Virus record (IMG/VR): IMGVR_UViG_3300036770_004943
Location: 1 to 64,000 of that record
Length of the DNA: 64,000 bases
From: a virus
Lineage: Duplodnaviria; Heunggongvirae; Uroviricota; Caudoviricetes
Direction: 5' to 3' (one strand)
The notes beneath the pieces are model-generated. The model was given only the letters and a program-made list of their open reading frames with translations. It searched no databases and was not told the origin of the DNA. Made by a program: the position numbers and the translations under genes. The stretch's first letter is position 1. Every line of letters begins with the position of its first letter. Of the stretch, positions 18,297 through 64,000 are shown in pieces.

Positions 18297-18301
18297 ATGT
18301 T

Positions 18302-39588: not shown

Positions 39589-39592
39589 ATTT

Positions 39593-40294: not shown

Positions 40295-40299
40295 AATTT

Positions 40300-50175: not shown

Positions 50176-50176
50176 C

Positions 50177-50563
50177 ATGAGACTTTACTCTATCCTAAAT
50201 GAACTTATTTTAGAGTTTGCCAGTAGGACAGAGGTTGAAAGGGCAATCGTAAACCATGATAGGGTTAGAATCTATTATGAAGGTGATGAAACTGAAACCC
50301 CTGGTGAAAGATTTATAGAACCATACGTTTTAGGTCTTTCAAAAGCCGGCAATCCAATACTTCGTGCATATCAATACGCTGGAGTAACGGATACGGAACA
50401 ACCTGGATGGAAAACTTTTTTATTAGATAAAATAAGGGATTGGGATGAAGTTAATGAAATGCCTTTTAGAAGTCCTATATCGGATAGAGTAAGTGGAATA
50501 CCTAAATATAATCCTAATGGTGATAAAAGTATGATAACAATTTATAAACAAGCAAAGTTTTAA
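50177..50563 (+). CDS. Hypothetical protein (128 aa).
   Basis: ORF tightly packed (2-nt gap, then ATGA overlap with next). Confidence 0.5.
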   Translation: MRLYSILNELILEFASRTEVERAIVNHDRVRIYYEGDETETPGERFIEPYVLGLSKAGNPILRAYQYAGVTDTEQPGWKTFLLDKIRDWDEVNEMPFRSPISDRVSGIPKYNPNGDKSMITIYKQAKF

Positions 50564-51186: not shown

Positions 51187-51279
51187 CGTTAAAAAAACAA
51201 ACTATGGAAAAAGGATGTGGATGTAAAGGTAATAAAGGTACTCCTAAAGGAAAATAACCTAACCTTTTAAAATGATTAA

Positions 51280-51313
51280 AAAGACTCGTGTTATCACGGG
51301 TCTTTTTTATTTT
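51280..51313 (+). terminator. Rho-independent terminator (one G-U pair in the stem).
   Basis: aagactcgtg-ttat-cacgggtctt followed by ttttttatttt. Confidence 0.45.
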
Positions 51314-51371
51314 ATTACAGTTGAGTTTATGTAAATAAAGGTTTATATTGGTTTATTAATTTATATAAAAT

Positions 51372-52694
51372 ATGAACCAAATCAAAGTATTAGTTATACC
51401 TTCAGATAGAAGCGGAGTATCCAAATTTAGGTCTGTCGACCCTCATTTAAAATTACAAGAATTATTCCCTAAAGAGTTCTTTATAGACATTGTAACAGCC
51501 GGTACTGACAGTATTGATTGGAATGATGATTTTTATTTAAAAAAATTCGACATAATTCATTTTCATAGAACTATTAGTGATGTTATAAATGGACAATTAC
51601 AACCAGTTTACGGTGATAATGCTAAAAAAATATTTGATAAAATAAAATCAATGGGTATTACATTAATAATGGACATTGATGATTATTGGATGCCTACTGT
51701 AGATCATCCAGCTTATCATTTATTAAAAAACTCTAAGCTTGATGAACAAATTAAGGGTAACTTTAAGATGGTTGATTATGTAACTACAACCACTAAAATA
51801 TTTGCCGATGAAATTAGTAAATTTAATAAAAACGTAGTGGTATTCCCAAATGCTATTGACCCTAGTGAACCACAGTTCCAAAAAAAAGAAATAAAAAGTG
51901 ATAAAAAATTACGTATTGGTTGGTTAGGTGGTTCTTCACATTTACATGATTTAGATTTGATGAGACAGGGTTTAAATAGCTGGATGACATCACCCGAAGG
52001 TAAAGATAGTCAATTAGTGGTTTGTGGATTTGATTTAAGGGGTTCTATAACCGAAACCAATCAACAAACAGGTGAACAAAAAACAAGAAAAATTTTACCA
52101 CATGAAAGTGTTTGGTGTAGGTATGAAGAAATGTTTACCAACAATTACAGTATTTTATCACCTGAATACAAAAAACATTTATTAAAATACTCCCAAGACG
52201 AAGATAGTTCTTATAATGATTTAAATGAACCTTATCGTAGAGTTTGGACTAAACCTATCACAACTTACGCTTCAAACTATAATAATTTTGAAGTTTCTTT
52301 GGCCCCATTAAAAGAACATATTTTTAACAAAGCCAAATCCCAATTAAAAGTTATTGAAGCTGGTTTTCACAAGAAGGCTTTAATCGCTCAAAATTTTGGT
52401 CCTTATACTATAGATTTAGTGGGTGCTATACAATATGGTGGTGGTTTTAATGAAAACGGTAATGCTATTCTTGTTGACTCTAATAAAAATCATAAAGATT
52501 GGTTGAAAGCGATTAAATTTTTACATAAGAACCCAGAGTGTGTTGAAATTTTAGGTAACAATTTATATAATACGGTTATGAAAAGATACCACATTGACGT
52601 TGTAACAAATAGTAGAGCAGAGTTTTACAAATCAATTATGAGTGGTAAAGAAAAAGAAGTTAAACAAGTAATTAAAGAGGTAAATGCAATTTAA
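51372..52694 (+). CDS. Hypothetical protein (440 aa). Possible GT-B-fold glycosyltransferase-like enzyme (weak).
   Basis: N-terminus KVLVIPSDRSGVSKF and central LRIGWLGGSSHLHDLD recall GT-B (GT4-like) layouts. No firm catalytic motif. Confidence 0.3.
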   Translation: MNQIKVLVIPSDRSGVSKFRSVDPHLKLQELFPKEFFIDIVTAGTDSIDWNDDFYLKKFDIIHFHRTISDVINGQLQPVYGDNAKKIFDKIKSMGITLIMDIDDYWMPTVDHPAYHLLKNSKLDEQIKGNFKMVDYVTTTTKIFADEISKFNKNVVVFPNAIDPSEPQFQKKEIKSDKKLRIGWLGGSSHLHDLDLMRQGLNSWMTSPEGKDSQLVVCGFDLRGSITETNQQTGEQKTRKILPHESVWCRYEEMFTNNYSILSPEYKKHLLKYSQDEDSSYNDLNEPYRRVWTKPITTYASNYNNFEVSLAPLKEHIFNKAKSQLKVIEAGFHKKALIAQNFGPYTIDLVGAIQYGGGFNENGNAILVDSNKNHKDWLKAIKFLHKNPECVEILGNNLYNTVMKRYHIDVVTNSRAEFYKSIMSGKEKEVKQVIKEVNAI

Positions 52695-53406
52695 TATTGA
52701 AAAATTATTATTCTTTGATGTTGAGACAGTAAGTCAATACAAAGATTTAGATGAACTACCAAAAGAAAAATTAAAACAATGGTTATCTTATTACGACAAT
52801 TTTAAAGAAAGAGTCACAGATAAATCAAAATTACATTCTGTAGCTTCAAATTCTGTAGAATCCGATTTAAACAAAAAAGAGGTCTATAGACAAACAGCGG
52901 CATTCTTTCCCGAATTTGGGAAAGTTGCTTGTGTGTCTTTGGGTTTTGTAATGAAAGGTGGGAAAACAAAATTTGAATCTTTTTACGGTACAGATGAAGT
53001 AGATATACTTAAAAAAGTTAGAGACGTTTTTAATAAAATTGATTCCATGGAATTTAGTTTATGTGGTCAGAATATTAAAAATTTTGACATACCTTTCTTA
53101 GCCAAAAGATATGTAATTAACGGTCTAAAACCACCAACAATTTTTCCTAAACACGATACCAAACCTTGGGAAATGAAAGTTTTAGACACTAAAGAAGTTT
53201 GGTCTTTTGGTGGTAAATACGGTTTAAGTTCTTTAGATTTAATCTGCATGTCTTTAGAAGTGGACTCACCCAAAAACGGTGATGTTAAAGGTGATAACGT
53301 CAATAAAAATTTTTGGATTGACAATCACGAAGAAATTAAGGAATATTGTGAAAGGGATGTTAAAGCCCTTATAGATATAATAACAAAATTTAATTCATTA
53401 AAATAA
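52684..53406 (+). CDS. DnaQ-like (DEDDy) 3'-5' exonuclease.
   Basis: Exo I LLFFDVETVS, Exo II GQNIKNFDIPFL, Exo III YCERDVKAL. Stand-alone, next to polB and dut. Confidence 0.65.
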   Translation: MQFNIEKLLFFDVETVSQYKDLDELPKEKLKQWLSYYDNFKERVTDKSKLHSVASNSVESDLNKKEVYRQTAAFFPEFGKVACVSLGFVMKGGKTKFESFYGTDEVDILKKVRDVFNKIDSMEFSLCGQNIKNFDIPFLAKRYVINGLKPPTIFPKHDTKPWEMKVLDTKEVWSFGGKYGLSSLDLICMSLEVDSPKNGDVKGDNVNKNFWIDNHEEIKEYCERDVKALIDIITKFNSLK

Positions 53407-54027
53407 ATGGGAGATATAAACGAATACATCAAAGAATTACAACAACTAAAAAGTTTGGGTATTTTAGATGAGGATCAAAATAATCAAATAGATAACTTAT
53501 TAAAAATTATTGGTTCGGTAGAAAAAGAGGTAACACCTAGTATTAGTGTAGAAAATTCTGATTTTGGTAAATTGGAGGTTAAGTTTGTTAACACTTCAGA
53601 TAACCCAGATCCAACTTGGGCAAAAGAAGGTGACTCAGGTTTTGATTTAAGAGCATGTTTACTAAAAGGAGAAAAAGAAGTTGTTCTAAAACCTTTTGAA
53701 AGAATGTTAATCCCAACAGGACTTTATTTTGAATTGCCTATGGGATATGAGTTACAAATTAGACCAAGAAGTGGTCACTCATTTAAAACGGGTCTTATGG
53801 CAATTTTAGGCACTGTAGATACGGGTTATAGGGGTGAGGTTAAAGTTATCATGATTAATTTATCTAACGAAGAACAAAAAATTGAACAGGGTGAGAGAGT
53901 AGCACAAGGTGTTGTAACATCTAGAGTTAGTACCGAATTTGGTAAATTAAGAAAATTAGAGTCAGTAAAAGAATTAACTGAAACTGAAAGAGGTTCTGGT
54001 GGTTTTGGTTCAACGGGTAAAAACTAA
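53407..54027 (+). CDS. dut: dUTP pyrophosphatase (trimeric dUTPase).
   Basis: Motif EGDSGFDLRA, IRPRSGHSFK (RSG), GTVDTGYRGEVKVIMIN (GxxDxDYRGE) and C-terminal RGSGGFGSTG. Confidence 0.85.
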   Translation: MGDINEYIKELQQLKSLGILDEDQNNQIDNLLKIIGSVEKEVTPSISVENSDFGKLEVKFVNTSDNPDPTWAKEGDSGFDLRACLLKGEKEVVLKPFERMLIPTGLYFELPMGYELQIRPRSGHSFKTGLMAILGTVDTGYRGEVKVIMINLSNEEQKIEQGERVAQGVVTSRVSTEFGKLRKLESVKELTETERGSGGFGSTGKN

Positions 54028-54030
54028 ATT

Positions 54031-54522
54031 ATGTCAGTAGTTGCAGTAAAAGTAGAAAAAAACAAAATTACAATAGGGGCGGATAGTATTTTAGTTAACG
54101 GATATACCCAAGAAAAAGATAAAATGGCCAAATTATTCCAAAATGAATGGGCTGTTGTGGGTGATGTTGGTGAGGCTCAAGAAGGTGCCCTATTTCAAAT
54201 TTATTCTAAAACTAGAAAACCTAGAGAAGCTTCAGTAGAAGCTTTAACAGAATTTCTTTTTGAGTTTTATTCGTGGAAAAGAGAAAAAACTGAAAGTACT
54301 GAATTAGTTAACGACTATATTATAGTTTTTGACGGTAAAGCTTTTTTAGTAGAAAAATTCTATGTAAAAGAAATTAAAGATTATATGGCAATTGGTGCTG
54401 GAATGGATTTCGCTTTGGCGGCCCTTTATTTGGGATCAACAGTAGAAGACGCTATCAAAACGTCTTGTCACTTATCAATTCTTTGTGAAGAACCAGTAAA
54501 TTTAATTACGGTATCGAAATAA
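54031..54522 (+). CDS. HslV/proteasome-beta-like Ntn-hydrolase (putative peptidase), with Ser2 as candidate N-terminal nucleophile.
   Basis: MSVVAVKVEKNKITIGADS...VVGDVGEAQEGALF aligns by eye with HslV TTIVSVRRNGHVVIAGDG...IAGFAGGTADAFTLF. DYMAIGAGMDFALAAL matches HslV LIAIGSGGPYAQAAA. Confidence 0.45.
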   Translation: MSVVAVKVEKNKITIGADSILVNGYTQEKDKMAKLFQNEWAVVGDVGEAQEGALFQIYSKTRKPREASVEALTEFLFEFYSWKREKTESTELVNDYIIVFDGKAFLVEKFYVKEIKDYMAIGAGMDFALAALYLGSTVEDAIKTSCHLSILCEEPVNLITVSK

Positions 54523-54545
54523 TAAAAAATAATGATTATATTTGT

Positions 54546-54764
54546 ATGGTAGATTTTAAGTTTAACTTTATAAAAAATAAAAAAATGGAAAATTTGTATG
54601 ATTATTTCTTGCATTACAACATTTACACAGAAGAATGGAATGCTATTTTAAGAACTGAGTATAACCAATATTTAAACAGTGGTTGTAAAGCTGAAATTAT
54701 TAGTGACAAAACTATTGATGGTTTAATCACTAAAATAACATCTTTAGAAACTGTTAATGTGTAA
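54546..54764 (+). CDS. Small hypothetical protein (72 aa).
   Basis: ORF immediately upstream of the glycosyltransferase island. Confidence 0.4.
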   Translation: MVDFKFNFIKNKKMENLYDYFLHYNIYTEEWNAILRTEYNQYLNSGCKAEIISDKTIDGLITKITSLETVNV

Positions 54765-56362
54765 TGATTAGTATCGTCTACTCAACTAGAACACCAAACA
54801 AACAGTTTCAAGATTATATTAAAAAAACTATTGGTGTTAAGGAATATGAAATCTATGAGATTGTTAATAACGGTGTTAAATCATTAACAGAGTGTTATAA
54901 TGAAGGTTTAAATAAAACTAAAAACAATATTGTAGTATTTTGTCATGATGATATTCTTTTGAAAGAAGGTTGGGGTAAAAAGATATTAAGACATTTTAAA
55001 GAAACCGAATACGGTATTTTAGGTATGGCAGGTACAACCGATATGTCTGAAATTGGACGTTGGTGGCAGGATTCGACTAAAATGGTTGGTATTGTTTCTC
55101 ACTCGCATGAAGGTAAAACCTGGGAGAACAGGTATTCAGCTAATTTTGAGGATGAAATTATTGAGACCGTTATGTTAGACGGTCTCTTTTTTGTTGCTCA
55201 TAAAGAAAGAATTAAAACTAAATTTGACGAAGATTTTAAAGGGTTTCATTTTTATGATGTTGATTTTACCTTTAACAATCATTTAAATGGTGTTAAAGTA
55301 GGTGTTATGTTTGATATTAAAATAACTCATAAATCTATAGGTATGACCAACGACGAATGGGAAAAAAATCGTTTACAATTTGTTGAAAAATATAAGGACA
55401 AACTTCCTTATAAAATTAAACCTGAATTAAGGTATGAAAATAAATTTAAAACTTTAAAAGAATACCCTAAGTTGTCCATTATAATCCCAACCAAAGGTAA
55501 CATAGATTTAGTTAAACAATGTGTTGACTCACTTTATAAACAAGGTGGTTATATTGGTATGGCAATGAGAACTATTATTGCTGACACTGGTTCAACACCT
55601 GAAGAATTAACTGAGTTAAAAAATTACATAAATGGGTTAAAGTTTAGGTCAGACCAACATTATCACGTTAAGGTAGTTGAATACGACTTTTATAACTTTG
55701 CTGTTATTAACAACGATGTGGTAGAAAACCATATTGAAAAAGACACAGAAGTTTTATTGTTCTGTAATAACGATATTAAAGTCGTTAACAACGCCATCAA
55801 CTTAATGATGGATGTTTACATTAAAAACAAAAAAACTGTCGGTACTATTGGTTGTCGACTTCATTACGGTGATAATACCGTACAGCATTCAGGTATCGTG
55901 ATGTTCCTACAACAAAATCGCCAAGTAGGTATTACCCATTATGGTTTACGTTCTTATTACACATATCATAATCAACTTAAAAGGGATGTTTTTGGTAATA
56001 CAGGGGCATTCATGATGATATCTAAAAATCTATTTAATGAAATTGGTGGGTTTAACACTGAGTATCGTGAATGTTTTGAGGATGTGCAATTAAATGTAGA
56101 ATGTATTAACAAAAATAAAGACAATATTTTTGTAGGTGAAGCAGTTTGTTATCATTATGAAAGTCAAACTAGAAACAAAAGTGAAGATAAATTAAAACGT
56201 GAATCTGAAGACTACACAAAAAAGCTAATCCCATTTATACTTACTAACAAGAAAACTTATAACTACTTTACTAACATTAAAGCAAAGGATTTTGAAGAAA
56301 TGTTAAAACAAGCTAGACAGCAACAACTAAGTAAACAAAATGAAATTAGGAGTTTCATATAA
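54764..56362 (+). CDS. Two-domain family-2-like glycosyltransferase (532 aa).
   Basis: The C-terminal domain LSIIIPTKGNIDLVKQCVDSLYKQ ... FCNNDIKV is a GT2 signature with DxD. The N-terminal domain IVYSTRTP...VVFCHDD is also GT-A-like. Confidence 0.65.
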   Translation: MISIVYSTRTPNKQFQDYIKKTIGVKEYEIYEIVNNGVKSLTECYNEGLNKTKNNIVVFCHDDILLKEGWGKKILRHFKETEYGILGMAGTTDMSEIGRWWQDSTKMVGIVSHSHEGKTWENRYSANFEDEIIETVMLDGLFFVAHKERIKTKFDEDFKGFHFYDVDFTFNNHLNGVKVGVMFDIKITHKSIGMTNDEWEKNRLQFVEKYKDKLPYKIKPELRYENKFKTLKEYPKLSIIIPTKGNIDLVKQCVDSLYKQGGYIGMAMRTIIADTGSTPEELTELKNYINGLKFRSDQHYHVKVVEYDFYNFAVINNDVVENHIEKDTEVLLFCNNDIKVVNNAINLMMDVYIKNKKTVGTIGCRLHYGDNTVQHSGIVMFLQQNRQVGITHYGLRSYYTYHNQLKRDVFGNTGAFMMISKNLFNEIGGFNTEYRECFEDVQLNVECINKNKDNIFVGEAVCYHYESQTRNKSEDKLKRESEDYTKKLIPFILTNKKTYNYFTNIKAKDFEEMLKQARQQQLSKQNEIRSFI

Positions 56363-57113
56363 TCTATTTGATGGGGAAGAACTTTTAGAAGGTTCAATAA
56401 AACAGATAAGACAACACGTTGATTACATAAGTGTTGTTTACCAAACAGTATCTAACTTTGGTAATTCATGTAATCCGGAATTAGTACCCCTATTAGAAAG
56501 ATTAAAATCAGAAGGATTAATAGATGAGTTATTTGAATACTCACCTAAAATTAATAAAGGTGGGCATTTTAATGAAATTCAAAAAAGAAACATTGGGTTG
56601 GCACTGTCACAAGGAGCTGGGTGTACTCACCATATGTCAATGGATTCTGATGAGTATTATATTACTTCAGAATTTGAAAATTTTAAAAGAATTGTAGAAG
56701 AAGGTGATTATGACTCCTCTTATTGTCAGATGCAAACTTATTACAAATCTTGGGAGTATTCTTTGGATCCACCTGAAACTTATTACGTTTCTTTAATTTT
56801 TAAAATTAAAAACGATTCTAATTTTGTTTTAATGGCACCATCCCCAGTTTTGGTTGATCCTACTAGAAGGATGTCACCTAGTGATAAAGGGGTTATTTTA
56901 AAAAGAGAAGAAATACAAATGCACCACGGTTCGTATATTAGAAATGATATAAGAACTAAATTAACTAATAGTTCTGCTTCAGTTAATTTTACAAAAGATA
57001 TTGATAGGATTGTATCCCATTATAATAATTGGTCCTACCCAAATCAAGTTTTGTGGGGTGGGTTACCAAGTACTTTACATAAAGTTAAAAAAACACAAAA
57101 TTTATTTGCATGA
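56340..57113 (+). CDS. Hypothetical GT-A-like glycosyltransferase (257 aa), weak.
   Basis: ORF within the island. DSDEYY could be a DxD motif. Otherwise unassigned. Confidence 0.35.
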   Translation: MKLGVSYNLFDGEELLEGSIKQIRQHVDYISVVYQTVSNFGNSCNPELVPLLERLKSEGLIDELFEYSPKINKGGHFNEIQKRNIGLALSQGAGCTHHMSMDSDEYYITSEFENFKRIVEEGDYDSSYCQMQTYYKSWEYSLDPPETYYVSLIFKIKNDSNFVLMAPSPVLVDPTRRMSPSDKGVILKREEIQMHHGSYIRNDIRTKLTNSSASVNFTKDIDRIVSHYNNWSYPNQVLWGGLPSTLHKVKKTQNLFA

Positions 57114-57763
57114 AATTAAACGAATATTTTGATAAAATCTATTGTATAAATCTTGATAAAAGAACTGATAGATGGGAAGAGTGTCAAAAAATTTTCTCTA
57201 AACATGGTTTAGAGGTTGAACGTTTTTCAGCCATAGATGGTAGTAAAGAAAACTATAATTTAGGTTACCCATATGATAACGAATTAGCTGGTGCTATTAG
57301 TCATACTAAAGTGATTGAAAAGGCTAAAAATTTAAAATTTAAAAATGTTTTAATTTTAGAGGATGACGTTGATTTTATACCTTTGTTAGAAGAAACTTTT
57401 TCTAAAGTAATCGAAGAATTACCTAAAAATTATGATGGTATTTTATTTGGTGGTAATCATGTGGGTGGTTTTAGACAATCTACTGAAAATATTGTAAAAA
57501 TTAACAGGTCATATGCATTACATGCTTACGGTTTAAATTCAGAGTCTTTTGAGTTTACGATTAATTATATGAATAATAAAATTAAGAATACAATCAATAA
57601 GGGTAAAGAAAGTATTAAAACATCTGTTGCGGCAGATTTTTTTATGGCAGATTTACACTCTATGGGTAATTGGTATTGTTTTAGACCTCATTTAGCTTGG
57701 CAAAGAAGTGGTTTTTCTGATATTCAAAATGCTATAATGGATTACGATTTTTTAAAAAAATAA
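57110..57763 (+). CDS. Family 25 glycosyltransferase (LPS beta-1,4-galactosyltransferase family, Lic2A/LgtB-like).
   Basis: IYCINLDKRTDRWEECQKIFSKHGLEVERFSAIDG and VLILEDDVDF match the GT25 N-terminal pattern (IYVINL.R...R...I...L.......F.AVDG; ILEDDV). Confidence 0.65.
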   Translation: MKLNEYFDKIYCINLDKRTDRWEECQKIFSKHGLEVERFSAIDGSKENYNLGYPYDNELAGAISHTKVIEKAKNLKFKNVLILEDDVDFIPLLEETFSKVIEELPKNYDGILFGGNHVGGFRQSTENIVKINRSYALHAYGLNSESFEFTINYMNNKIKNTINKGKESIKTSVAADFFMADLHSMGNWYCFRPHLAWQRSGFSDIQNAIMDYDFLKK

Positions 57764-57764
57764 A

Positions 57765-58562
57765 ATGGTTACAAGTTATTTACAAGGGGGGCTAGGAAAC
57801 CAAATATTTCAAATTGTTGCTGCATATAATTTAGCTAAAAAAAACGGTGACGTAGCTGAATTTGATTTTAATGAGTGTCACACCCCTTTACAGGGACATC
57901 AATCAAAAAAATATAAGGATACCATCTTTAAAGAATTTAACCATAGTGATAGTATTTTAATTAAAAACACCTTCACTCAAAAAGGACATGGGTTTGAATT
58001 AATACCATATAAAGAATCATTACAATTACAAGGGTTTTTTCAGTCAGAAAAGTTTTTTGAAGAAAACAAAAAAAATATTATAGAAAAACTTTTAACAGGT
58101 ATTAAATCCGAAAAAGAAAAATGGGATAAAGTTTTAGGTTGGATTGGTGGTTTAAGTAGTAATAAAAAACTTGTTTCTGTACATATTAGAAGGGGTGATT
58201 ACTTAAAATTCCCCCATATTCACACACCTTGTGGTTTAGATTATTATAAAAAAGCTTTATCTATTATGGGTGAAAAAATAGGTGATTTTATACCTGTTTT
58301 TATTTCAGATGATAAAGATTGGTGTAAAGAGGTTTTTAAAGATTTAGATTGTTTAATTTCACCCTTTAACGACGAAATTGAAGACTTGATTTTGATGTTT
58401 AACTGTAAACACAATATTATAGCTAATAGTAGTTTTAGTTGGTGGGGGGCTTACTTAAATCAAAACCCCGATAAAATTGTTATAGGACCTAAAAAATGGT
58501 TTGGCCCAGCAGGTCCACAAGACCAAGAAGATACAATACCTAATAATTGGATTAAATTTTAA
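57765..58562 (+). CDS. Family 11 alpha-1,2-fucosyltransferase.
   Basis: GGLGNQIFQ (compare FutC GGLGNQMFQ), HIRRGDY (compare HIRRGDY), IANSSFSWWGAYLNQNPDKIVIGPKKW (compare [27 protein letters not shown]). Confidence 0.85.
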   Translation: MVTSYLQGGLGNQIFQIVAAYNLAKKNGDVAEFDFNECHTPLQGHQSKKYKDTIFKEFNHSDSILIKNTFTQKGHGFELIPYKESLQLQGFFQSEKFFEENKKNIIEKLLTGIKSEKEKWDKVLGWIGGLSSNKKLVSVHIRRGDYLKFPHIHTPCGLDYYKKALSIMGEKIGDFIPVFISDDKDWCKEVFKDLDCLISPFNDEIEDLILMFNCKHNIIANSSFSWWGAYLNQNPDKIVIGPKKWFGPAGPQDQEDTIPNNWIKF

Positions 58563-58569
58563 ATTAAAA

Positions 58570-59136
58570 ATGAAAATGAAAATAAATAAAAAAGAGGTTT
58601 ACTCACAAAAAATGGATTTTTTTGATTACGATATCAAAGCATACCCATATTTGAAAATGGATAGAGAACACTATAAATTGTTAACTTATTTAACCAAATC
58701 AATTGACGGTATAACTATTATAGATGCCGGTACCAGTCAAGGACATTCTTGTTTAGCACTAGCACAAAATGAGAAAAATAAAGTTATAACTTATGATATT
58801 TTTGATAAACATTTTTCTTTTTTTGAATCTCATAAAAATATAGAGTTCAAAAAAATGGACATAAATAATGAATCACCGATAATAATTAAATCAGCTAAAA
58901 TTATACTATTGGATATTGATCCACATGACGGAATCCAAGAAATTAAATTTACAAATTACCTAAAAGAGATAGGATATAAAGGTTATGTCATATGTGATGA
59001 TATTAATTTAAACCAGCCTATGCGTAATTGGTGGAATTCTATCGATATTGAAAAATATGATGTAACAGACATAGGTCACGGTACTGGTACCGGTATTATA
59101 AATTATAATGATGAAAAAATTTTAATAAGTGAATAA
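58570..59136 (+). CDS. Putative SAM-dependent methyltransferase (the ORF track extends the start to 58501, overlapping the fucosyltransferase gene).
   Basis: ITIIDAGTSQGHSCLALAQ resembles methyltransferase motif I (hhDhGcGxG). Later ILLDIDPHDG. A CmcI/sugar O-methyltransferase-like context. Confidence 0.45.
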   Translation: MKMKINKKEVYSQKMDFFDYDIKAYPYLKMDREHYKLLTYLTKSIDGITIIDAGTSQGHSCLALAQNEKNKVITYDIFDKHFSFFESHKNIEFKKMDINNESPIIIKSAKIILLDIDPHDGIQEIKFTNYLKEIGYKGYVICDDINLNQPMRNWWNSIDIEKYDVTDIGHGTGTGIINYNDEKILISE

Positions 59137-59962
59137 AGTTGTTTTTAATCTGATTGATGACAGTTTTAGTCATCACATGTCAGAATCACAAACAGATTCA
59201 ACAGTAGCTGGAAGAAATCCAGAATATGTTAAATGGGATAGGAGTTTATCTAACAAAAATAGACCAACTTTTTATACCAATGAAAAAATTTTAAACGCAA
59301 AAGGTGGAGATAATAGTTACGGTATTATATATGAATCTAGATCTATTATACCTAATACATACACAGAAGTTGAAAAAATAATACCTAAATTAAAGGTTAT
59401 GTTTACACATAATTCTGAATTCTTAAATAAATACCCAAATTGTAAGTGGATACCTGGCGGTGGTATATGGGTGGGGGGTAATTATGGAAAGGGTGAAAAT
59501 AAGATTCATAAAAAAACTAAAATATGTTCCATAGTTTCATCAAACAAAAGAATGTGTGAGTTACATAATTTTAGATTAAATGTGGTTAAAAATGTTATAA
59601 ATAACCCAAAAATCGAAACCTTTGGGTTTACCACTGGTTGGCGACCAATTTATGAAAGTTTACATGATTTTATGTTTTCTATTGTTATAGAAAATTTTAA
59701 AGACGATATGTATTTTACCGAAAAAATATTAAATTGTTTTGCCACGGGGACTATACCGATTTATTTAGGTGCTAAAAATATCAGTGAAAGATTTAATGTG
59801 GATGGTATAATAACTTTTGAATCTATAGAAGAATTAAACCATATTTTACCGTCATTAGATCAAGAATTTTATTTAAGTAAAATGTACGCAATAAAAGATA
59901 ATTTTCAAAGGGTAAAAAATTATAATTGTATAGAAGATTACATTGTTAAAAATTATTTCTAA
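59129..59962 (+). CDS. Family 10 alpha-1,3(/4)-fucosyltransferase (GTG start per ORF track; alternative ATG at 59177).
   Basis: FMFSIVIENFKDDMYFTEKILNCFATGTIPIYLGAKNISERFNVDGIITF is a near-complete match to the GT10 motif FKFNLCFENSQGYGYVTEKIIDAYFSHTIPIYWGSPSVAKDFNPKSFVNV of Helicobacter FucT. Confidence 0.8.
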   Translation: MNKVVFNLIDDSFSHHMSESQTDSTVAGRNPEYVKWDRSLSNKNRPTFYTNEKILNAKGGDNSYGIIYESRSIIPNTYTEVEKIIPKLKVMFTHNSEFLNKYPNCKWIPGGGIWVGGNYGKGENKIHKKTKICSIVSSNKRMCELHNFRLNVVKNVINNPKIETFGFTTGWRPIYESLHDFMFSIVIENFKDDMYFTEKILNCFATGTIPIYLGAKNISERFNVDGIITFESIEELNHILPSLDQEFYLSKMYAIKDNFQRVKNYNCIEDYIVKNYF

Positions 59963-60632
59963 AATGGGTAGAGTAGTTTATATAACATATGCAACAGGAG
60001 AAAAATATTTAAAAAAGGCTGAAAATATTTTACCAGACGTATCAAAATATTTTGATGAGGTTTTATTATATAAAAAAGAAGATATTATAGAAAATTTTTA
60101 CGTTAAAAATAAAAAAATACTTGAATGTGAACGAGGTGCTGGTTATTGGTTATGGAAACCTTATTTTATTTTAAAAACATTAAAAAACCTAGAAGAAAAT
60201 GATATTGTTTTTTACCTAGATTTAGGTGATAGATTATTTAATGATATTAAAAATTTTATAATCAATAAAACCTCAGTAAATGAAGGTTTTTTCCTCGTAG
60301 AAGGTTCACATAACCACTCTATATGGACTAAAAAAGATTGTTTTCATCTAATGGGTTGTGATAGTAATGAATACACAAAAGCGAGACAATTAGAAGCTGG
60401 TTGTTGTGCGTTTACTAAAAATGATAAAAGTATTAAATTTGTTGAAGAATGGTTAAAATTTTGTGAAAATTATGATATAATTTCAAACGAATCTAAATTA
60501 CCTAATGTAAACGGTTTTAGGGAACATAGGTTTGATCAAAGTATTTTAACTAATTTAAAGATAAAACACAATATAAAAACTGTCTCTATCAATGAGGTCT
60601 GCGGTTATGTTAATTTTAATGAATTTTTTTAA
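59943..60632 (+). CDS. Hypothetical protein (229 aa) in glycan island. Glycosyltransferase-like role suspected from position only.
   Basis: ORF overlapping neighbours at both ends. No motif recognised. Confidence 0.4.
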   Translation: MLKIISKMGRVVYITYATGEKYLKKAENILPDVSKYFDEVLLYKKEDIIENFYVKNKKILECERGAGYWLWKPYFILKTLKNLEENDIVFYLDLGDRLFNDIKNFIINKTSVNEGFFLVEGSHNHSIWTKKDCFHLMGCDSNEYTKARQLEAGCCAFTKNDKSIKFVEEWLKFCENYDIISNESKLPNVNGFREHRFDQSILTNLKIKHNIKTVSINEVCGYVNFNEFF

Positions 60633-61300
60633 TGATAGTAGGTAATGGTTTAATTGCTAAAAATTTACACCCTATTGATAAAAAAGATATTTTATTTTTT
60701 GCATCAGGGGTGTCTAATTCTATGTGTAACGATAGAGATGAGTATGATAGAGAATTTGATTTACTAAAAAAACACATAAATTCTAATAAAAAATTAGTGT
60801 ATTTTAGCTCTATAGACGAATATATCGTTAATGAACAATATTTAAATCATAAAAAAAAAATCGAAGAATTTATAAAAAATAATGTCGATAATTTTATAAT
60901 AATAAAAATACCCCAACTTATAGGGAAAAACGGTAATCCTAATAATTTTATAAATCACATTTATAACAACATTAAAAATAATACTGAGTTCGATGTTTTT
61001 TTAACAAAAAGAAGTTTATTAGACGTAGAAGATTTAATAAAAATTTTAAATTTTTTAATTAAAAAAAAATTTAATGGGGTTTTTGACATAAACTACGTAG
61101 AACTCATGTATGTTAATGATTTTATTAAAATAATAGAAGACATTGTTAATAAAAAAGTGAAAATTAAAAATACTATAAAAATAGAACAAGATATTAAAAA
61201 AAATAGTGTTTTCGTTGAAACAGTGTTAACAAAAATAATAAAAGAAAAGAAATCTTATAATTTAAAAATAATAAAAAAATATTTTAATGAAAAAAATTAG
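60632..61300 (+). CDS. Short-chain NAD(P)-binding epimerase/reductase-like protein (222 aa), weak.
   Basis: N-terminal MIVGNGLIAKNL (Rossmann GxGxxA) and DILFFASGVSNS...KLVYFSSIDEYI resemble RmlD/epimerase layout. Confidence 0.35.
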   Translation: MIVGNGLIAKNLHPIDKKDILFFASGVSNSMCNDRDEYDREFDLLKKHINSNKKLVYFSSIDEYIVNEQYLNHKKKIEEFIKNNVDNFIIIKIPQLIGKNGNPNNFINHIYNNIKNNTEFDVFLTKRSLLDVEDLIKILNFLIKKKFNGVFDINYVELMYVNDFIKIIEDIVNKKVKIKNTIKIEQDIKKNSVFVETVLTKIIKEKKSYNLKIIKKYFNEKN

Positions 61301-62060
61301 TTGTTTACTAACAATACATAATAAAGATTTTTTAATAGGTAGGGTAGTCAATTCCCTAATAAATAACCTGTCTGAAAATACAAATCAATTAATAGTTGTA
61401 TTTGACGGTTGTACTGATAATAGTGAGTCGATAGTTAAAGAAACGTTAAAACCATTAAAAAATAAAAAAATAGATTATGTATACACCGATAATGTTTTTG
61501 AAACTAAAGCTAATAATGCCGGGTTAAAACTTGTCGATAACGATTTTGTTGTTATGTTACAAGATGATATGGTTATAAATGAAAAAAATTTTGAGTTAAG
61601 GATGTTGGAACCTTTTTTAAAATTTAATGATGTTTTTGCCGTAACTTCTTTTGTGGCACATAATAATATATACAATGAAACAACAAAAGAAATTAATTAT
61701 ATAGACATGGCTTTTAAAAAAAACTCTAATAGAAACATATTCTACGCTAGAGAATACGGTAATAGGGGTCCTTTAATGTATGATTATAGAGATGTTGTTA
61801 AATTAAACTTTTTAGATGAATATTTTTCACCACAAAATTATGATGATATGGATATATCCATGAGAGCTTTTAAGGAGTTAAATAAAATTTCAGGACTGTA
61901 TTGGGTTGACTATATCTCCGATTTAAGTTGGGGTACCTCTAGGAGAAACCCGAATCCAATTTTAAATAACATACATATAATAAATGCGGCGAAAATATTG
62001 GAAAAACATAAAGATTTATTGTATAGTAATAATAAATTTATAGAAAATAGAATAATGTAA
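61287..62060 (+). CDS. Family 2 glycosyltransferase.
   Basis: ISCLLTIHNKDFLIGRVVNSLINN...LIVVFDGCTDNS (GT2 N-terminal signature) and MLQDDMV. Confidence 0.6.
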   Translation: MKKISCLLTIHNKDFLIGRVVNSLINNLSENTNQLIVVFDGCTDNSESIVKETLKPLKNKKIDYVYTDNVFETKANNAGLKLVDNDFVVMLQDDMVINEKNFELRMLEPFLKFNDVFAVTSFVAHNNIYNETTKEINYIDMAFKKNSNRNIFYAREYGNRGPLMYDYRDVVKLNFLDEYFSPQNYDDMDISMRAFKELNKISGLYWVDYISDLSWGTSRRNPNPILNNIHIINAAKILEKHKDLLYSNNKFIENRIM

Positions 62061-62061
62061 T

Positions 62062-62649
62062 ATGAAAATTAAACCGTCAGATAGTTCAGAATGGTATAGA
62101 GTAAACGGTGATAATACCTATAGAGTTAATTATGATTTAAATGAAAATTCAATAGTTGTTGATTTAGGTGCCAGACACGGACATTGGTCCGATATTATAA
62201 GAAAAAAATACAACCCCAAAATATACTGTTTTGAAGTTGTTGAAAAATTCTGCGAAGAATTAAAACTTAAAAATTATGAAACTTTTTGTTTAGCGGTTTC
62301 TGATAAATACGATAAAATATCTTTAGGTATATTAGATTCTGAGGCATCTATTTTTTATAAAGACTCATCTTTTAATGTAGATTCCATACCTGCAACTAGT
62401 ATATTTAAATTAATAAATCAGGAAAATATTGATTTAATTAAAATCAATGTTGAAGGGGCCGAATACCCTATATTAAAAAATTTAATAAATAACGGTGATA
62501 TTACTAAAATAAAAAATTTGCAAATACAATTTCATTTATTTGATGGTGTTGAAAATAGTGAATACGATGGTATAATTAAAGAATTAAGTAAAACACATAA
62601 ACTGTCCTGGAGGTTTCCATTTGTTTGGGAAAACTGGGAAGTAATATAA
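62062..62649 (+). CDS. FkbM-family methyltransferase.
   Basis: IVVDLGARHGHWSDII...KIYCFEVVEKFCEELKLKN...FCLAVSDKYDKISLG follows the Methyltransf_21 pattern (hDhGAnhG..., ..hyafEP, ..alsd..g...l). Confidence 0.55.
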   Translation: MKIKPSDSSEWYRVNGDNTYRVNYDLNENSIVVDLGARHGHWSDIIRKKYNPKIYCFEVVEKFCEELKLKNYETFCLAVSDKYDKISLGILDSEASIFYKDSSFNVDSIPATSIFKLINQENIDLIKINVEGAEYPILKNLINNGDITKIKNLQIQFHLFDGVENSEYDGIIKELSKTHKLSWRFPFVWENWEVI

Positions 62650-62665
62650 TAAATAATAATAAAAA

Positions 62666-63304
62666 ATGGTAGAATCATACTCACAATGCGGACAAGATTT
62701 GTTCGTTTTTAACATACTAAAAAATAAGAAAGGAACTTTTTTAGATTTAGGTTGTAATTTACCTAAAAAAATAAATAATACTTATTTACTTGAATTAAAT
62801 GGTTGGTACGGTATTTCATTAGATATTATAGATTATAGTGAAAATTGGAAAGAAAGAAGTACTAAATTTATTAATATTGATTGTTTTAGTATAGATTACA
62901 AATCTTTTTTACCTAATTATTATGAGGATAAAGTTATAGACTACTTATCTTTAGATATGGAAAAAGTTGGTGAAAGGTATAAACTTTTAGCTAAATTATT
63001 AGAAACAGATTACGACTTTAAAGTAATAACTATAGAACATGATTCACATTTAGGTAATGACTTTATAGTTAATGAAAGAACACCACAAAGAGAACTATTA
63101 ACTAATAAAGGTTACATTTTATTATGTTCAAATGTTTCACAAAAGCAACACCCTAATTTATTCTATGAAGATTGGTGGGTTAACCCGAATTTTTTTAATG
63201 AAGAAGAGTTAAAACCCTTGTATTCAAATGAGGAAAGTTGTGATAGAATATTAAAAAAATTAAATGTAGAATATACTATTAACGAAATTTCACAAAAATG
63301 GTAA
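62666..63304 (+). CDS. FkbM-like methyltransferase-like protein (212 aa), weak.
   Basis: TFLDLGCNLPKKIN...GISLDII resembles an FkbM-type motif I. Last gene of the island. Confidence 0.35.
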   Translation: MVESYSQCGQDLFVFNILKNKKGTFLDLGCNLPKKINNTYLLELNGWYGISLDIIDYSENWKERSTKFINIDCFSIDYKSFLPNYYEDKVIDYLSLDMEKVGERYKLLAKLLETDYDFKVITIEHDSHLGNDFIVNERTPQRELLTNKGYILLCSNVSQKQHPNLFYEDWWVNPNFFNEEELKPLYSNEESCDRILKKLNVEYTINEISQKW

Positions 63305-63308
63305 AAAT

Positions 63309-64000
63309 ATGACAAAAAAAAGAAACAGAAAGTTAACACAAGAAGATGTTGACACAATAAATGAATTTAACATTAGTAAACAAAATGACGATAACTTATT
63401 TAGTCATATAAAAATAAACATACAACCTAAAACTGAAAACCAAAAAAAGCTAGTGTATGCTATTACAAATAATGAAATTACTATAGCTTCAGGTTTACCA
63501 GGTACTGGAAAAACTTTTTTAGCTTGTGCTGAAGCTTTAAAATTAGTTAAAGACACTAAAAACCCCTATCAAAAAATAATTTTAGTTAAATCTGTGACTA
63601 CTTTAAAGGATGAAGAAATTGGTTTTTTAAAAGGTACAATGGAAGAAAAAATGGAACCGTTTATGGATTCTTTTTTGGATAATTTTCATAAAATTATTGG
63701 TGAGTCTAATACCACAAAATTAAGAAACATGGGACTTATTCAAATCAAACCAATAGCTTATGTTCGTGGTAGAAGTATCGATAAGTCGGTAATTATTATA
63801 GATGAGGCACAAAATGTGACTTTAGATAACATGAGAACTTTAATGACACGTATTGGTGATAACTCTAAAATTATCATCCTTGGTGATGTTAAACAAAAAG
63901 ATATTCGCAATAAAAAAGAAAGTTCCCTTGAAGTTGTGATAGAAAGATTTAAAAATAAACCTGGTTTTGGTACAGTTGAACTTAGAAATGAAGAGGATAT
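63309..64000 (+). CDS. phoH: PhoH-family ATPase (partial, runs off window end).
   Basis: Walker A ASGLPGTGKTFLA, then IIIIDEAQNVTLDNMRTLMTRIGDNSKIIILGD (DEAQN Walker B region) typical of PhoH. Confidence 0.8.
   Translation, partial: MTKKRNRKLTQEDVDTINEFNISKQNDDNLFSHIKINIQPKTENQKKLVYAITNNEITIASGLPGTGKTFLACAEALKLVKDTKNPYQKIILVKSVTTLKDEEIGFLKGTMEEKMEPFMDSFLDNFHKIIGESNTTKLRNMGLIQIKPIAYVRGRSIDKSVIIIDEAQNVTLDNMRTLMTRIGDNSKIIILGDVKQKDIRNKKESSLEVVIERFKNKPGFGTVELRNEED

Follow-up and report, generated by a model that had tools for sequence, protein, structure and literature searches.

A phage-encoded glycan-assembly gene array with a conserved left part and an exchangeable right part, from an uncultured jumbo-phage lineage

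Glycan gene cassettes similar to the one described here have already been published for large marine cyanophages. Clusters designated "LPS / cell-wall synthesis and modification" are carried by the cyanomyoviruses P-SSM2, S-SM2, S-SSM7, S-T4, ACG-2014f, S-SCSM1 and S-SCSM2R, and the last two combine GT10, GT11, GT25 and GT2 glycosyltransferase (GT) genes with GDP-fucose genes (PMC9602691, PMC12801897). The same enzyme families occur in bacterial O-antigen, LOS outer-core and capsule loci (FutA/B/C of Helicobacter; the GT11 enzymes of E. coli O86/O127/O128), and viral glycosylation of the virion itself is known for chlorovirus capsid N-glycans (A064R, A111/114R, A075L), Megavirinae fibrils and the capsid and tail-tube O-glycans of mycobacteriophages. 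The array analysed here, located in a 64,000-nucleotide stretch of phage DNA (the window), resembles the cyanomyovirus clusters in its lytic contractile-tailed carrier, in the contiguity of GT2, GT10, GT11 and GT25 genes with methyltransferase and nucleotide-sugar enzyme genes, and in that its GT11 (about 35% identity) and GT10 (30-38%) are direct sequence homologues of theirs. It differs in belonging to another phage lineage (its PolB reaches no more than about 24% identity to that of any deposited phage, and no deposited phage matches it at the DNA level), in that several GTs are core to the lineage and the variable part occupies one fixed, sharp-edged site, and in lacking donor-synthesis genes in the present allele, whereas S-SCSM1 encodes gmd/fcl. 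With bacterial loci it shares, besides the enzyme families, a GC content below that of the flanks, hypervariable content between conserved flanks and, in relatives' alleles, rare-sugar pathways; unlike them it is carried by a virus, and none of 12 loci contains Wzx/Wzy, Wzm/Wzt, an initiating transferase or a ligase. With the virion-glycosylating viruses it has in common soluble virus-encoded GT-A/GT-B enzymes and methyltransferases, nucleotide-sugar pathways in relatives, a predicted cytoplasmic action and a conserved core with a clade-specific outer part (PMC7826918, PMC10117803), although the similarity is at fold level only (about 10% identity), the genes lie outside the structural module and no virion protein of this lineage is known to be glycosylated. 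An initial annotation of this DNA had called such a cassette in a phage highly unusual, which is wrong, given the published cyanomyoviruses and given that tblastn against deposited phages found GT11 homologues in 103 records and GT10 homologues in 22, chiefly cyanomyoviruses and megaphages. What is new is the exchange of the cassette's right half among relatives, which is comparable to the exchange of O-antigen genes in bacteria.

The source phage, which is uncultured and contractile-tailed, is a member of a jumbo-phage lineage that is probably "moraphage"-like. Moraphages are aquatic phages with predicted Bacteroidota hosts and four core GT orthogroups (Perez-Hernandez et al. 2025, PMC12619734), and they are probably the same lineage as the present one, with which they share PolB, PhoH, dUTPase, ClpP, T4-like tail genes and several core GTs. 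That paper notes variable genomic islands without analysing them, and the present island, its boundaries and its content are not described there. The relatives that we found are likewise uncultured, with contigs of up to 318-380 kb, and at least five GT genes belong to the core set of the lineage, whose members span 30-87% protein identity. Three observations make a Bacteroidota host plausible: the moraphage host prediction, the best-named bacterial matches of the GT11 protein (Flavobacterium and Chitinophagaceae, at most 40% identity) and the homologues of the u257 protein, which a homologue search found only in Prevotella Lak phages; the u257 family is shared with the Lak megaphages (30.5% identity, E about 1e-24).

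Positions 54764-63304 constitute a phage-encoded glycan-assembly module of 11 plus-strand genes (the initial annotation counted twelve, but placed every ORF correctly) in a gap-free array with intergenic distances of -23 to +16 nt. Between 51372 and 63310 all intergenic gaps are at most 23 nt, and since a terminator-like hairpin lies in the only sizeable gap upstream, the co-directional block from p440 to phoH likely begins there. That the array is phage-borne is borne out by its position on one contig with PolB, exonuclease and dUTPase genes on one side and phoH on the other, tail sheath, tube and baseplate genes being found elsewhere in the window. It encodes seven glycosyltransferase proteins with eight GT domains (GT2, GT-A, GT25, GT11, GT10 and retaining GT-A), three methyltransferases, of which one is a firm call and two are weak, and a short nucleotide-sugar SDR; all of these proteins are predicted to be soluble. 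The product of the array is probably a methylated, fucose-type sugar chain. The features are as follows, Pfam matches being judged against each family's curated cut-off.

51278..51307, plus strand: terminator-like hairpin, 13-bp stem and T run
51372..52694, plus strand: p440, putative GT-B (GT4/GT1-type) glycosyltransferase, lineage-conserved, outside 54764-63304
54764..56362, plus strand: two-domain GT-A glycosyltransferase (Glyco_tranf_2_5 + Glycos_transf_2), conserved backbone gene
56340..57113, plus strand: u257, predicted GT-A fold glycosyltransferase, conserved backbone gene, invariant D102-x-D104-E105
57110..57763, plus strand: GT25-family glycosyltransferase, PF01755 8.3e-14 (52 bits, cut-off 24)
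57765..58562, plus strand: GT11 (alpha-1,2-fucosyltransferase family), PF01531 1.2e-25, all three family motifs
57768..63304, plus strand: exchangeable (hypervariable) segment, no nucleotide homology to relatives
58570..59136, plus strand: putative class I SAM-dependent methyltransferase, Methyltransf_31/25/24/23 E 0.0045-0.02, below cut-off
59129..59962, plus strand: GT10 (alpha-1,3/4-fucosyltransferase family), PF00852 7.8e-9 (36 bits, cut-off 24)
59964..60632, plus strand: u229, predicted retaining-type GT-A fold glycosyltransferase (GT6/GT8/GT34-like), model pLDDT 96
60632..61300, plus strand: short SDR, 222 aa, nucleotide-sugar epimerase/reductase-like, GxGxxA and YxxxK
61287..62060, plus strand: GT2-family glycosyltransferase, PF00535 1.8e-13
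62062..62649, plus strand: FkbM-family methyltransferase, PF05050 3.4e-10, above cut-off
62666..63304, plus strand: FkbM-like protein, PF05050 0.0076, below cut-off
63310..64000, plus strand: phoH, conserved right-hand anchor of the island, truncated by the window end

The left part of the array, consisting of the two-domain GT2, u257 and GT25 genes, is conserved across the jumbo-phage lineage, as are the GT-B gene upstream and two further GT genes past phoH. From PolB through the GT-B and dUTPase genes to GT25, gene order is syntenic in relatives at 72-85% DNA identity. The two-domain GT2 (PF13712 at 2.3e-31, PF00535 at 5.5e-14) is 69-81% identical in close relatives, with DNA homology unbroken across the gene. 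The u257 protein, which the initial annotation had described as GT-A-like, has no Pfam or NCBIfam match, yet is a GT-A fold according to a high-confidence AF2 model (pLDDT 94.2) that matches TarS, SunS, TarP and SpsA in Foldseek (3e-7 to 7e-6), TarP being the top PDB match. The GT25 protein contains an EDDVD (DXD-type) motif, and its gene closes the conserved left flank in the majority of relatives. As part of the conserved glycosylation gene set, p440 is kept at 30-87% identity in 33 IMG/VR loci; Glyco_transf_4 matches in 8 of 17 relatives, Glycos_transf_1 matches down to 1e-7 and a profile match to the GT group 1 protein of PDB 5i45 at 0.0012 point consistently, if weakly, to a GT-B enzyme.

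The right 5.5 kb, from GT11 to the FkbM-like gene, represent a single allele of a hypervariable island, which is swapped wholesale between fixed flanks. Homology in blastn ends at 57755-57767 for three relatives and at 58573 for the closest one, and restarts at 63305-63424, i.e. at phoH; the segment in between has a GC content of 0.256, the minimum of the window (mean 0.312, sd 0.016, over all 6.2-kb windows). Its gene content is different in every relative, 51 of the 71 protein clusters in nine compared islands being unique (mean Jaccard 0.14). The initial annotation had taken the whole span for one island: glycan genes do extend throughout it, but only the right half is exchangeable, which had been missed. 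Relatives' alleles encode full rare-sugar pathways, with 17 SDR epimerase/dehydratases and 8 DegT proteins as well as RfbH-like, Fcl-like, RmlC/D, acetyltransferase and NTP-transferase proteins. The present allele, with nine genes after u257 (GT25 to the second FkbM gene) compared to up to 19 in relatives, is the shortest and lacks a donor pathway and the SDR and DegT genes found in most alleles; profile searches of the window ORFs found no gmd or fcl anywhere in it, as had been noted before. In 12 loci, from the two-domain GT2 to phoH and duplicate loci included, none of 193 proteins has two or more hydrophobic segments, implying that no allele encodes a flippase, polymerase, ABC permease, initiating phosphoglycosyl transferase or ligase. 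The earlier description of a complete cassette, which sequence alone could not establish, is thus not supported.

The GT2, GT25, GT11 and GT10 assignments of the initial annotation are upheld by Pfam matches above cut-off, and the fucosyltransferase motifs are intact. The GT11 match (91 bits, cut-off 24) covers model positions 33-295 of 298, and in 21 homologues down to 23% identity the GGLGNQ, HxRRGDY and NSSFSWW motifs are (near-)invariant, G8, G11, N12, Q16, R142, N221, S222 and W227 being invariant and H140, R143 and D145 nearly so. There are 7764 GT11 homologues at E<=1e-10, of which the nearest (88%) lie on phage-sized contigs. In GT10 the Pfam match corresponds to the conserved C-terminal, donor-binding domain, and the N-terminal domain is short and without a Pfam match; PDB matches are plant FucTA (6e-7), H. 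pylori FucT (1e-5) and FUT9 (0.0075), and R149, E188-N189, E198-K199 and P210, invariant in nine homologues, correspond in alignments to the EN...TEK...IPIY stretch of alpha-1,3-fucosyltransferases with solved structures. The proposal that these enzymes build Lewis X/Y- or H-type LacNAc is nevertheless not supported: linkage and acceptor do not follow from GT25, GT11 and GT10 membership, Lewis-type linkages are not demonstrable from sequence, the GT11 family includes alpha-1,3 enzymes too (PMC4202792), and no LacNAc-forming GlcNAc-transferase was identified.

As acceptor we tentatively favour the phage's own virion proteins, with each phage strain thereby gaining a glycan coat specific to it, over host lipid-linked glycans. 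In the cytoplasm of the infected cell, the conserved transferases would build an inner glycan that the island enzymes would then extend with strain-specific sugars, namely 6-deoxyhexose/fucose via GT11 and GT10, more hexoses, and O-methyl caps via FkbM-type enzymes; donors for the present allele would be host nucleotide sugars, modified at most by the short SDR. Pointing this way are the intact motifs, GT-A folds, gap-free packing, sharp DNA boundaries and conserved-plus-variable architecture, the status of several GTs as lineage core rather than sporadic accessory genes, and the absence of proteins with several hydrophobic segments, which fits a product staying on a cytoplasmic acceptor. The chlorovirus capsid likewise bears N-glycans with a conserved and a variable part, assembled in the cytoplasm by virus-encoded galactosyl-, xylosyl- and fucosyl-transferases and methyltransferases (PMC7826918, PMC5408694), and relatives' rare-sugar alleles resemble the clade-specific gene clusters behind the decoration of Megavirinae fibrils (PMC10117803). 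In chloroviruses, mimiviruses and mycobacteriophages, gene sets of this kind serve to glycosylate the virion. Against this, the array lies within the PolB-exonuclease-dUTPase-PhoH block, away from the structural genes, and is without the ATATTTATA element that precedes nine of these; the classical role of GT25, GT11 and GT10 enzymes is in LOS/O-antigen synthesis on lipid-linked acceptors; a selective force for virion-glycan diversity in fresh water is not apparent; and donor and linkage specificities are only predicted, two of the three methyltransferase calls being weak. The Ser/Thr/Asn-rich fibres singled out in the initial annotation do have an S+T content of 26-28%, but such a composition is common to fibres in general and does not indicate glycosylation. 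The missing transmembrane proteins would equally fit soluble phage GTs that modify host undecaprenyl-linked intermediates at the inner membrane face, a possibility to which we give somewhat less credence. The glycans altered in this way and then exported via the host flippase and ligase could be those of the O-antigen, LOS outer core or capsule or, in a Bacteroidota host, the general protein O-glycan. This would block superinfection or keep progeny off debris, and the island would vary because each phage must match the glycan of its own host strain. Such remodelling is what the homologous cyanomyovirus clusters are usually, if putatively, taken to bring about (PMC9602691, PMC12801897), and characterised bacterial GT25, GT11 and GT10 enzymes build LOS/LPS epitopes (PMC4202792). 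The Bacteroidota O-glycan consists of a conserved methyl-rhamnose (methyl-deoxyhexose) core and a variable fucosylated outer part made by soluble GTs of lfg-type loci (PMC8698959); this is a host system needing a lipid carrier, a flippase and a periplasmic oligosaccharyltransferase, and a link to the phage array is speculative. The location among early/middle-type replication genes, the lack of the upstream element of the structural genes, the O-antigen-like variability and low GC of the island and the plausible Bacteroidota host also favour remodelling. On the other hand, so many lineage-core GT genes would be odd for host-strain-specific accessories, and none of the 12 loci has its own flippase or polymerase, which bacterial loci for new repeat units almost always have. 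To our knowledge, there is no experimental case of a lytic phage rebuilding LPS with eight or more cytosolic GTs, and the seroconversion modules that we know of are small, membrane-bound and from temperate phages.

It could also be that the acceptor is a different one, the product being an oligosaccharide, either free or secreted, or a small molecule or lipid that carries the sugars, or that parts of this minimal allele are decaying hitch-hikers left after recombination. The short allele and missing donor pathway, three ORFs with weak family matches and the very low GC (0.19-0.26) would agree with this; we regard it as unlikely. None of the 11 ORFs is disrupted, their packing is tight, and each recurs with 100% identity in two independent SRA assemblies; the GT11 and GT10 catalytic motifs are conserved, and the short SDR comes from a large family of equal length in which G-x-G and Y-x-x-x-K are kept. 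Least probable is DNA hypermodification, in which p440, the two-domain GT2, u257 and possibly island enzymes would glycosylate hydroxymethylated bases for restriction evasion. The GT genes do adjoin those for PolB, exonuclease and dUTPase, genes for DNA-glycosylating GTs frequently lie close to those for DNA polymerases and epimerases, and TarP, the top PDB match of u257, is also that of GT-A enzymes with which phages glycosylate DNA (bioRxiv 10.1101/2023.12.21.572611). However, such pathways are usually clustered (bioRxiv 10.1101/2023.12.21.572611), and 49 other ORFs of the window include neither a thymidylate-synthase-like hydroxymethylase nor a TET/JBP dioxygenase or C5-methyltransferase; the moraphage core VOG list (PMC12619734) has none of these either. 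Sets of GT11, GT10, GT25, FkbM, DegT and RfbH are characteristic of polysaccharide chemistry and have no known precedent on DNA.

Among the remaining island genes, the GT2 at 61287-62060 has no homologue among 65 PhoH-anchored relatives. The three methyltransferases proposed earlier fared differently: the FkbM enzyme at 62062-62649 is firm, whereas the proteins at 58570-59136 (PDB match to the N-methyltransferase OvoM at 0.0088) and 62666-63304 (BLASTP against a strong FkbM relative not significant, no match in a PDB search) are weakly methyltransferase-like, falling below the Pfam cut-offs. The SDR-like gene, with the lowest GC of the array genes (0.193), has a weak family match alone (E 0.0011). 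Its family of 1488 representative homologues, almost all of about 220 aa, supports the call: G4, G6 and K74 are invariant and Y70 nearly so, 25 of 42 members have an epimerase Pfam match, and the family profile matches dTDP-glucose 4,6-dehydratase (6.9e-10), RmlD (7.4e-8) and Cap5F (7.8e-8). The u229 product, from an ORF left unnamed in the initial annotation, is a retaining-type GT-A fold as judged from its high-confidence model; the ORF spans 59943-60632, with the true start probably at 59964. Gene callers place the start of the 58570-59136 ORF at 58576.

The ORF listing of the window contains an unbroken run of plus-strand genes from 54764 to 63304, with intergenic distances of -23 to +16 nt, and bears out the glycan-gene array proposed in the initial annotation, with 11 genes rather than the 12 originally counted. 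The array is co-directional and starts after a strong terminator-like hairpin (51278-51307). Counting Pfam calls above the curated thresholds, matches were obtained for six of the 11 genes, and the GT11, GT10, GT25, GT2 and FkbM assignments that had been made from sequence alone all came out above threshold:

54764-56362, plus strand: two-domain glycosyltransferase, GT2x2 (PF13712, 2.3e-31; PF00535, 5.5e-14)
57110-57763, plus strand: GT25 glycosyltransferase (PF01755, 8.3e-14)
57765-58562, plus strand: GT11 glycosyltransferase (PF01531, 1.2e-25, nearly the whole model)
59129-59962, plus strand: GT10 glycosyltransferase, C-terminal domain (PF00852, 7.8e-9)
61287-62060, plus strand: GT2 glycosyltransferase (Pfam, 1.8e-13)
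62062-62649, plus strand: FkbM-family methyltransferase (Pfam, 3.4e-10)

Including the ORFs without firm profile matches, the array encodes seven glycosyltransferase (GT) proteins, which carry eight GT domains between them, three methyltransferases, of which one is firm and two are tentative, and a short nucleotide-sugar SDR. An NCBIfam search of 10 of the proteins yielded no extra annotation, and no tRNA genes were found. A sigma-70 promoter scan was at chance level (116 sites vs 115 expected), and the Bacteroidota-type promoter TTTG-N18-21-TAnnTTTG was not enriched (3 vs 4 expected), providing no clue to the host. The possibility that the array is a pseudogenised remnant was rejected, since every ORF is intact and identical in two SRA assemblies.

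Both genes of fucosyltransferase families carry the expected hallmarks. The GT11 protein scores 90.8 bits against a Pfam cut-off of 23.9 and covers model positions 33-295 of 298, that is, the full domain. GT11, the alpha-1,2-fucosyltransferase family, is characterized by an N-terminal GGLGNQ-type motif, an HxRRxD motif whose first Arg is a critical or essential residue, and a C-terminal NSSFSWW-type motif, and the family also includes the alpha-1,3 enzyme HhFT2 (PMC4202792). The corresponding stretches here are GGLGNQIFQ (residues 8-16), HIRRGDY (140-146) and IANSSFSWWGAYL (219-231). Across 21 aligned homologues, the most distant at 23% identity, G8, G11, N12, Q16, R142, N221, S222 and W227 are invariant and H140, R143 and D145 near-invariant, confirming that the motifs first noticed by eye are present and conserved. 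A single-sequence phmmer search of the PDB with GT11 gave no match. The GT10 protein, of the alpha-1,3/4-fucosyltransferase family (35.9 bits, cut-off 23.9), aligns across the IENF...YFTEK...IPIY region of plant FucTA and H. pylori FucT, and also with the solved human alpha-1,3-fucosyltransferase. Its C-terminal donor-binding domain contains the Arg, EN and TEK...IPIY elements; R149, E188, N189, E198, K199 and P210 do not vary across nine phage homologues that are 28-40% identical, and the EN...YxTEK...IPIY motifs recognized initially are likewise conserved in this set. In GT10 enzymes the N-terminal acceptor domain carries the catalytic Glu, E95 in H. pylori FucT. Residues 1-126 of the present protein have no Pfam match, and the Glu-Ser pair of a YESRS stretch is found in 8/9 homologues. 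For the GT25 protein, both profile (52.4 bits, cut-off 24, PF01755 model positions 2-139 of 199) and motif (LEDDVDF, of the DXD type) agree with the family.

The u257 gene (56340-57113) has no Pfam or NCBIfam match, and a PDB profile search was also empty; its structural model (pLDDT 94) has a GT-A fold matching TarS, SunS, TarP and SpsA, and it carries an invariant D-x-D-E. The u229 gene, listed as 59943-60632, probably starts at 59964 and had been left unnamed in the initial annotation. From its model (pLDDT 96) it is predicted to be a retaining-type GT-A enzyme, the 10-14% identity being too low for a family or substrate call. A GT6-like fold adjoining GT11 is suggestive of ABH-type chemistry, although far from evidence for it. 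PDB sequence searches with u229 and with the ORFs at 58570-59136 (MT188) and 62666-63304 (FkbM2) returned noise only. The latter two appear weakly methyltransferase-like in sequence, and the FkbM2 call stays weak because a BLASTP comparison with a strong FkbM relative was not significant. The ORF at 60632-61300 is, on its own, weakly SDR-like (E 0.0011). It belongs to a family of ~220-aa proteins with 1488 cluster representatives at E<1e-3, most single members of which fall under the Pfam thresholds. The family has an invariant G-x-G and K74 and a near-invariant Y70 of Y-x-x-x-K, and its profile matches dTDP-glucose 4,6-dehydratase, RmlD and Cap5F at 7e-10 to 8e-8. This family has a truncated Rossmann N-terminus and is apparently undescribed.

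The array encodes soluble GTs and sugar-modifying enzymes that are partly conserved and partly exchangeable. When two anchor sets were merged for nine relatives and all ORFs were clustered, a common backbone emerged in the order PolB, four small genes, WYL, p440, exonuclease, dUTPase, p163, GT2x2 and u257, then a variable segment, then phoH, c18, c21, c22, c23 and further genes; the backbone includes additional GTs, namely p440 (51372-52694, probably GT-B), c22 (GT1-like) and c23 (GT2). On the left, the DNA is homologous at 72-85% from 44.9 kb up to 57755-57767, where GT25 ends; with the closest relative this homology extends to 58573, where GT11 ends. It restarts at 63305-63424, at the start of phoH. 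The intervening 5.5 kb have no nucleotide homologue by blastn in four relatives, and their GC content of 0.256 is the window minimum (mean 0.312, sd 0.016). Genes following u257 number nine in the window (GT25 to FkbM2) and up to 19 in relatives. Nine complete islands comprise 71 protein clusters, 51 of them occurring once, with a mean Jaccard index of 0.14; recurring families are GT10 (7/9), GT11 (6/9) and GT25 (6/9). Among 138 non-identical proteins of the islands, a Pfam/NCBIfam census gave 17 SDR epimerase/dehydratases and eight DegT aminotransferases, as well as RfbH-like, GDP-fucose-synthase-like, RmlC/RmlD and UDP-GlcNAc 2-epimerase proteins, acetyltransferases, nucleotidyltransferases, GT17 and FkbM enzymes. 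Other alleles of the island, e.g. those at L008 18475-21200, L051 8751-10014 and L042 6950-8098, encode such enzymes, with RfbH-like 3-dehydrases (best 2.5e-140), and also dTDP-glucose dehydratase-like proteins and TPP enzymes. The gene content of the relatives suggests that their phages may make dideoxy- and amino-sugars. The window's allele is unusual in being devoid of donor-synthesis genes apart from the short SDR, and none of its right-hand genes exceeds 36% identity in 65 PhoH-anchored relatives.

As in O-antigen loci, a hypervariable low-GC gene set is flanked by conserved genes. O-antigen or capsule export and initiation functions were not found at 12 loci: genes for a flippase, polymerase, permease, initiating transferase or ligase are absent from every allele, and the 193 proteins read from GT2x2 through phoH each have at most one hydrophobic segment. 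Wzx/Wzy, ABC transporter and initiating phosphoglycosyl transferase families are absent from the 25 commonest Pfam families of the variable-segment census. As to the flanks, the conserved genes c21 and c25-c29 beyond phoH have no Pfam match, and the conserved gene directly past phoH (L004 8980-9648) shows a weak, below-cut-off likeness to 5'-deoxynucleotidases (NT5C, 2.3e-4). A WYL-domain protein (1.4e-6) at 50177-50563 is conserved upstream of the module, and two small conserved genes, p163 (54031-54522) and p72 (54546-54764), lie between dUTPase and the first GT. Between the window and close relatives, p163 proteins share 74-91% identity (61% for L037). They match no family, although the sequence (…AIGAGMDFALAALYLG…) may resemble Ntn-hydrolase/proteasome-beta-like proteins.

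The initial annotation had viewed the array as a Lewis- or H-antigen-type pathway and as highly unusual in a phage. That interpretation is supported in part. Its enzyme families, its motifs and the lack of gmd/fcl in the window (Pfam search of the cassette and census of the other ORFs) stand; the claim of rarity does not, and the Lewis/H-antigen reading is not supported. A pathway like that of Helicobacter would call for a beta-1,4-GalT and a beta-1,3-GlcNAcT to build LacNAc, a supply of GDP-fucose, and a lipid-linked acceptor with export and ligation. Besides gmd/fcl, an identified GlcNAc-transferase is missing, and no allele has a membrane component. "Lewis-antigen-like" remains a guess. As to rarity, 103 phage records contain a GT11 homologue and 22 a GT10 homologue, and comparable cyanophage clusters have been published: S-SCSM2R has GT10, GT11, GT25, GT2 and GT1 genes (PMC12801897 Table 1), and S-SCSM1 has gmd, fcl and three fucosyltransferases (PMC9602691, PMC12801897). 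A region of ACG-2014f likewise combines epimerases, an aminotransferase, GTs and a methyltransferase. With contiguous, cyanophage-homologous GT2, GT10, GT11, GT25, methyltransferase and sugar-modifying genes, the window's locus corresponds to the cyanomyovirus-type "LPS/CWSM" cluster and thus belongs to an already-known type of phage glycan cluster. The carrier lineage is a different one, of barely described jumbo phages. What is new is the exact anatomy, in which core GTs are combined with a replaceable cassette that has defined boundaries, a low GC content and no membrane components, along with the putative annotation of two orphan ORFs as GT-A enzymes, based on models, and of one as a short SDR.

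The window also encodes a tail sheath, a gp19-type tube, a T4-type baseplate protein, ClpP, an SNF2 helicase, PolB, a 3'-5' exonuclease, dUTPase and PhoH; integrase families are absent from the Pfam census of its other ORFs. A mis-called bacterial contig was rejected on the basis of synteny with IMG/VR viral genomes and of the tail and baseplate genes. The same phage is present, identical, in two SRA assemblies. No close phage has been deposited: PolB is 24% identical to that of Salinibacter phages, and none of 50,697 phage records matched the cassette by megablast. Relatives in IMG/VR were found at 33 loci through p440 (440 aa) and at 65 through PhoH, on contigs of up to 318 and 380 kb, respectively. 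By gene content, relatives' contig size and multiple conserved GTs, the lineage fits the "moraphages" of 2025, sharing with them jumbo size, PolB, PhoH, dUTPase, T4-like tail genes and several core GTs. Moraphages have four core GT orthogroups, and their variable islands were left unexamined (PMC12619734). Among deposited phages, u257 homologues occur only in Prevotella Lak megaphages of roughly 540 kb (15 records, ~30.5%, E about 1e-24), and the 15 kb to each side of the Lak-C1 homologue (L183 15001-15768) lack further cassette genes. This distribution agrees with the placement in the moraphage study (PMC12619734) and would suit a Bacteroidota host, and u257 may be a marker that links huge phages of Bacteroidota. 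The best bacterial GT11 match, at 40% identity, points to no recent donor or host.

Whether the large GT clusters of big aquatic phages target virions, the host surface or DNA has been a question since such clusters first appeared in cyanophage genomes. Judging from family biochemistry, an oligosaccharide would be assembled stepwise in the cytoplasm, GT11 and GT10 would attach 6-deoxyhexose (fucose-type) residues and FkbM-type enzymes would O-methylate the glycan, with the host presumably supplying the donors for the window's allele. As the acceptor, we tentatively favor virion proteins over host lipid-linked glycans, because several GTs are lineage-core, because export functions are consistently missing, and because, to our knowledge, every experimentally resolved viral cluster combining multiple GTs, methyltransferases and rare-sugar enzymes decorates the virion, with the same conserved-inner/variable-outer pattern as seen here. 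Such clusters are those of chloroviruses and Megavirinae (PMC7826918, PMC10117803, PMC5408694) and, as cited in PMC12619734, of mycobacteriophages. The main rival, only slightly less likely, is that the array remodels host lipid-linked glycans. This would be the classic LOS/LPS role of these enzyme families, the island behaves O-antigen-like, and the array is placed among replication rather than structural genes and is not preceded by the ATATTTATA element found ahead of nine structural genes. A Bacteroidota host is possible. In the general O-glycan of that phylum, the core is methyl-rhamnose and the outer part is fucosylated and variable (PMC8698959), and such a glycan would make an attractive target. 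The homologous cyanophage clusters are also conventionally presumed to remodel the host (PMC9602691, PMC12801897).

Glycosylation of DNA seems very improbable. In its favor are the replication genes next to the array and the TarP-like matches of u257, which known DNA-modifying GT-A enzymes share (bioRxiv 10.1101/2023.12.21.572611), but the enzyme families suit polysaccharide chemistry, and neither an enzyme that forms 5-hydroxymethylpyrimidines (a ThyS-like hydroxymethylase or 5mYOX/TET) nor a C5-methyltransferase was found in the cassette and the 49 other ORFs of the window, which is part of a roughly 300-kb genome. Carrying the virion-protein reading further, one could imagine a "serotype locus", in which the jumbo lineage retains its core glycosylation machinery but swaps entire cassettes of transferases and rare-sugar pathways at a single fixed site between GT25 and phoH, and each strain's virions are clad in a different, partly methylated and fucosylated glycan. 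We consider this rather unlikely; if true, it would be the phage counterpart of the glycan clusters known from chloroviruses and mimiviruses, and no such case would have preceded it outside actinobacteriophages. In any case, the locus sharpens the target question: the GT25, GT11 and GT10 trio turns up again in jumbo phages of an unrelated lineage, some of the machinery is lineage-core while the remainder behaves like an O-antigen locus with exact recombination boundaries, and export functions are encoded by none of the alleles. The enzyme content is ordinary, and the value of the locus lies in being a clean, testable example of an O-antigen-like exchangeable phage locus, whose anatomy yields clear predictions for the first cultured member. 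The predicted GT10, GT11 and GT6-like enzymes, soluble and compact (about 220-280 aa), form a set amenable to expression and assay.

Read along the coding strand, the window has 15 copies of the 9-mer ATATTTATA vs 6.0 +/- 2.4 expected, a number reached in 0/100 shuffles. Nine of them precede the start of a minus-strand structural gene by 13-43 nt, the tail sheath gene being one of these:

4009, 7083, 8557, 11980, 14875, 19499, 23287, 38598 and 44883, minus strand: ATATTTATA copies

There are no copies from 49770 to 64000. As a candidate late/structural promoter element, it would leave the glycan array outside its control. On the same strand, six tandem paralogous ORFs of 195-220 aa (15164-18895; 26-40% mutual identity) directly precede the tail sheath gene in transcription order. 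Three further tandem paralogues of 232-242 aa (38624-41028, minus strand; 30-35% identity) are flanked by giant ORFs at 33148-37527 and 41025-44870 (1459 and 1281 aa), which are S/T/N-rich (36-41% S+T+N). Within the window, ConA-like lectin domains (Laminin_G_3) occur in four ORFs and YadA-head repeats in one.
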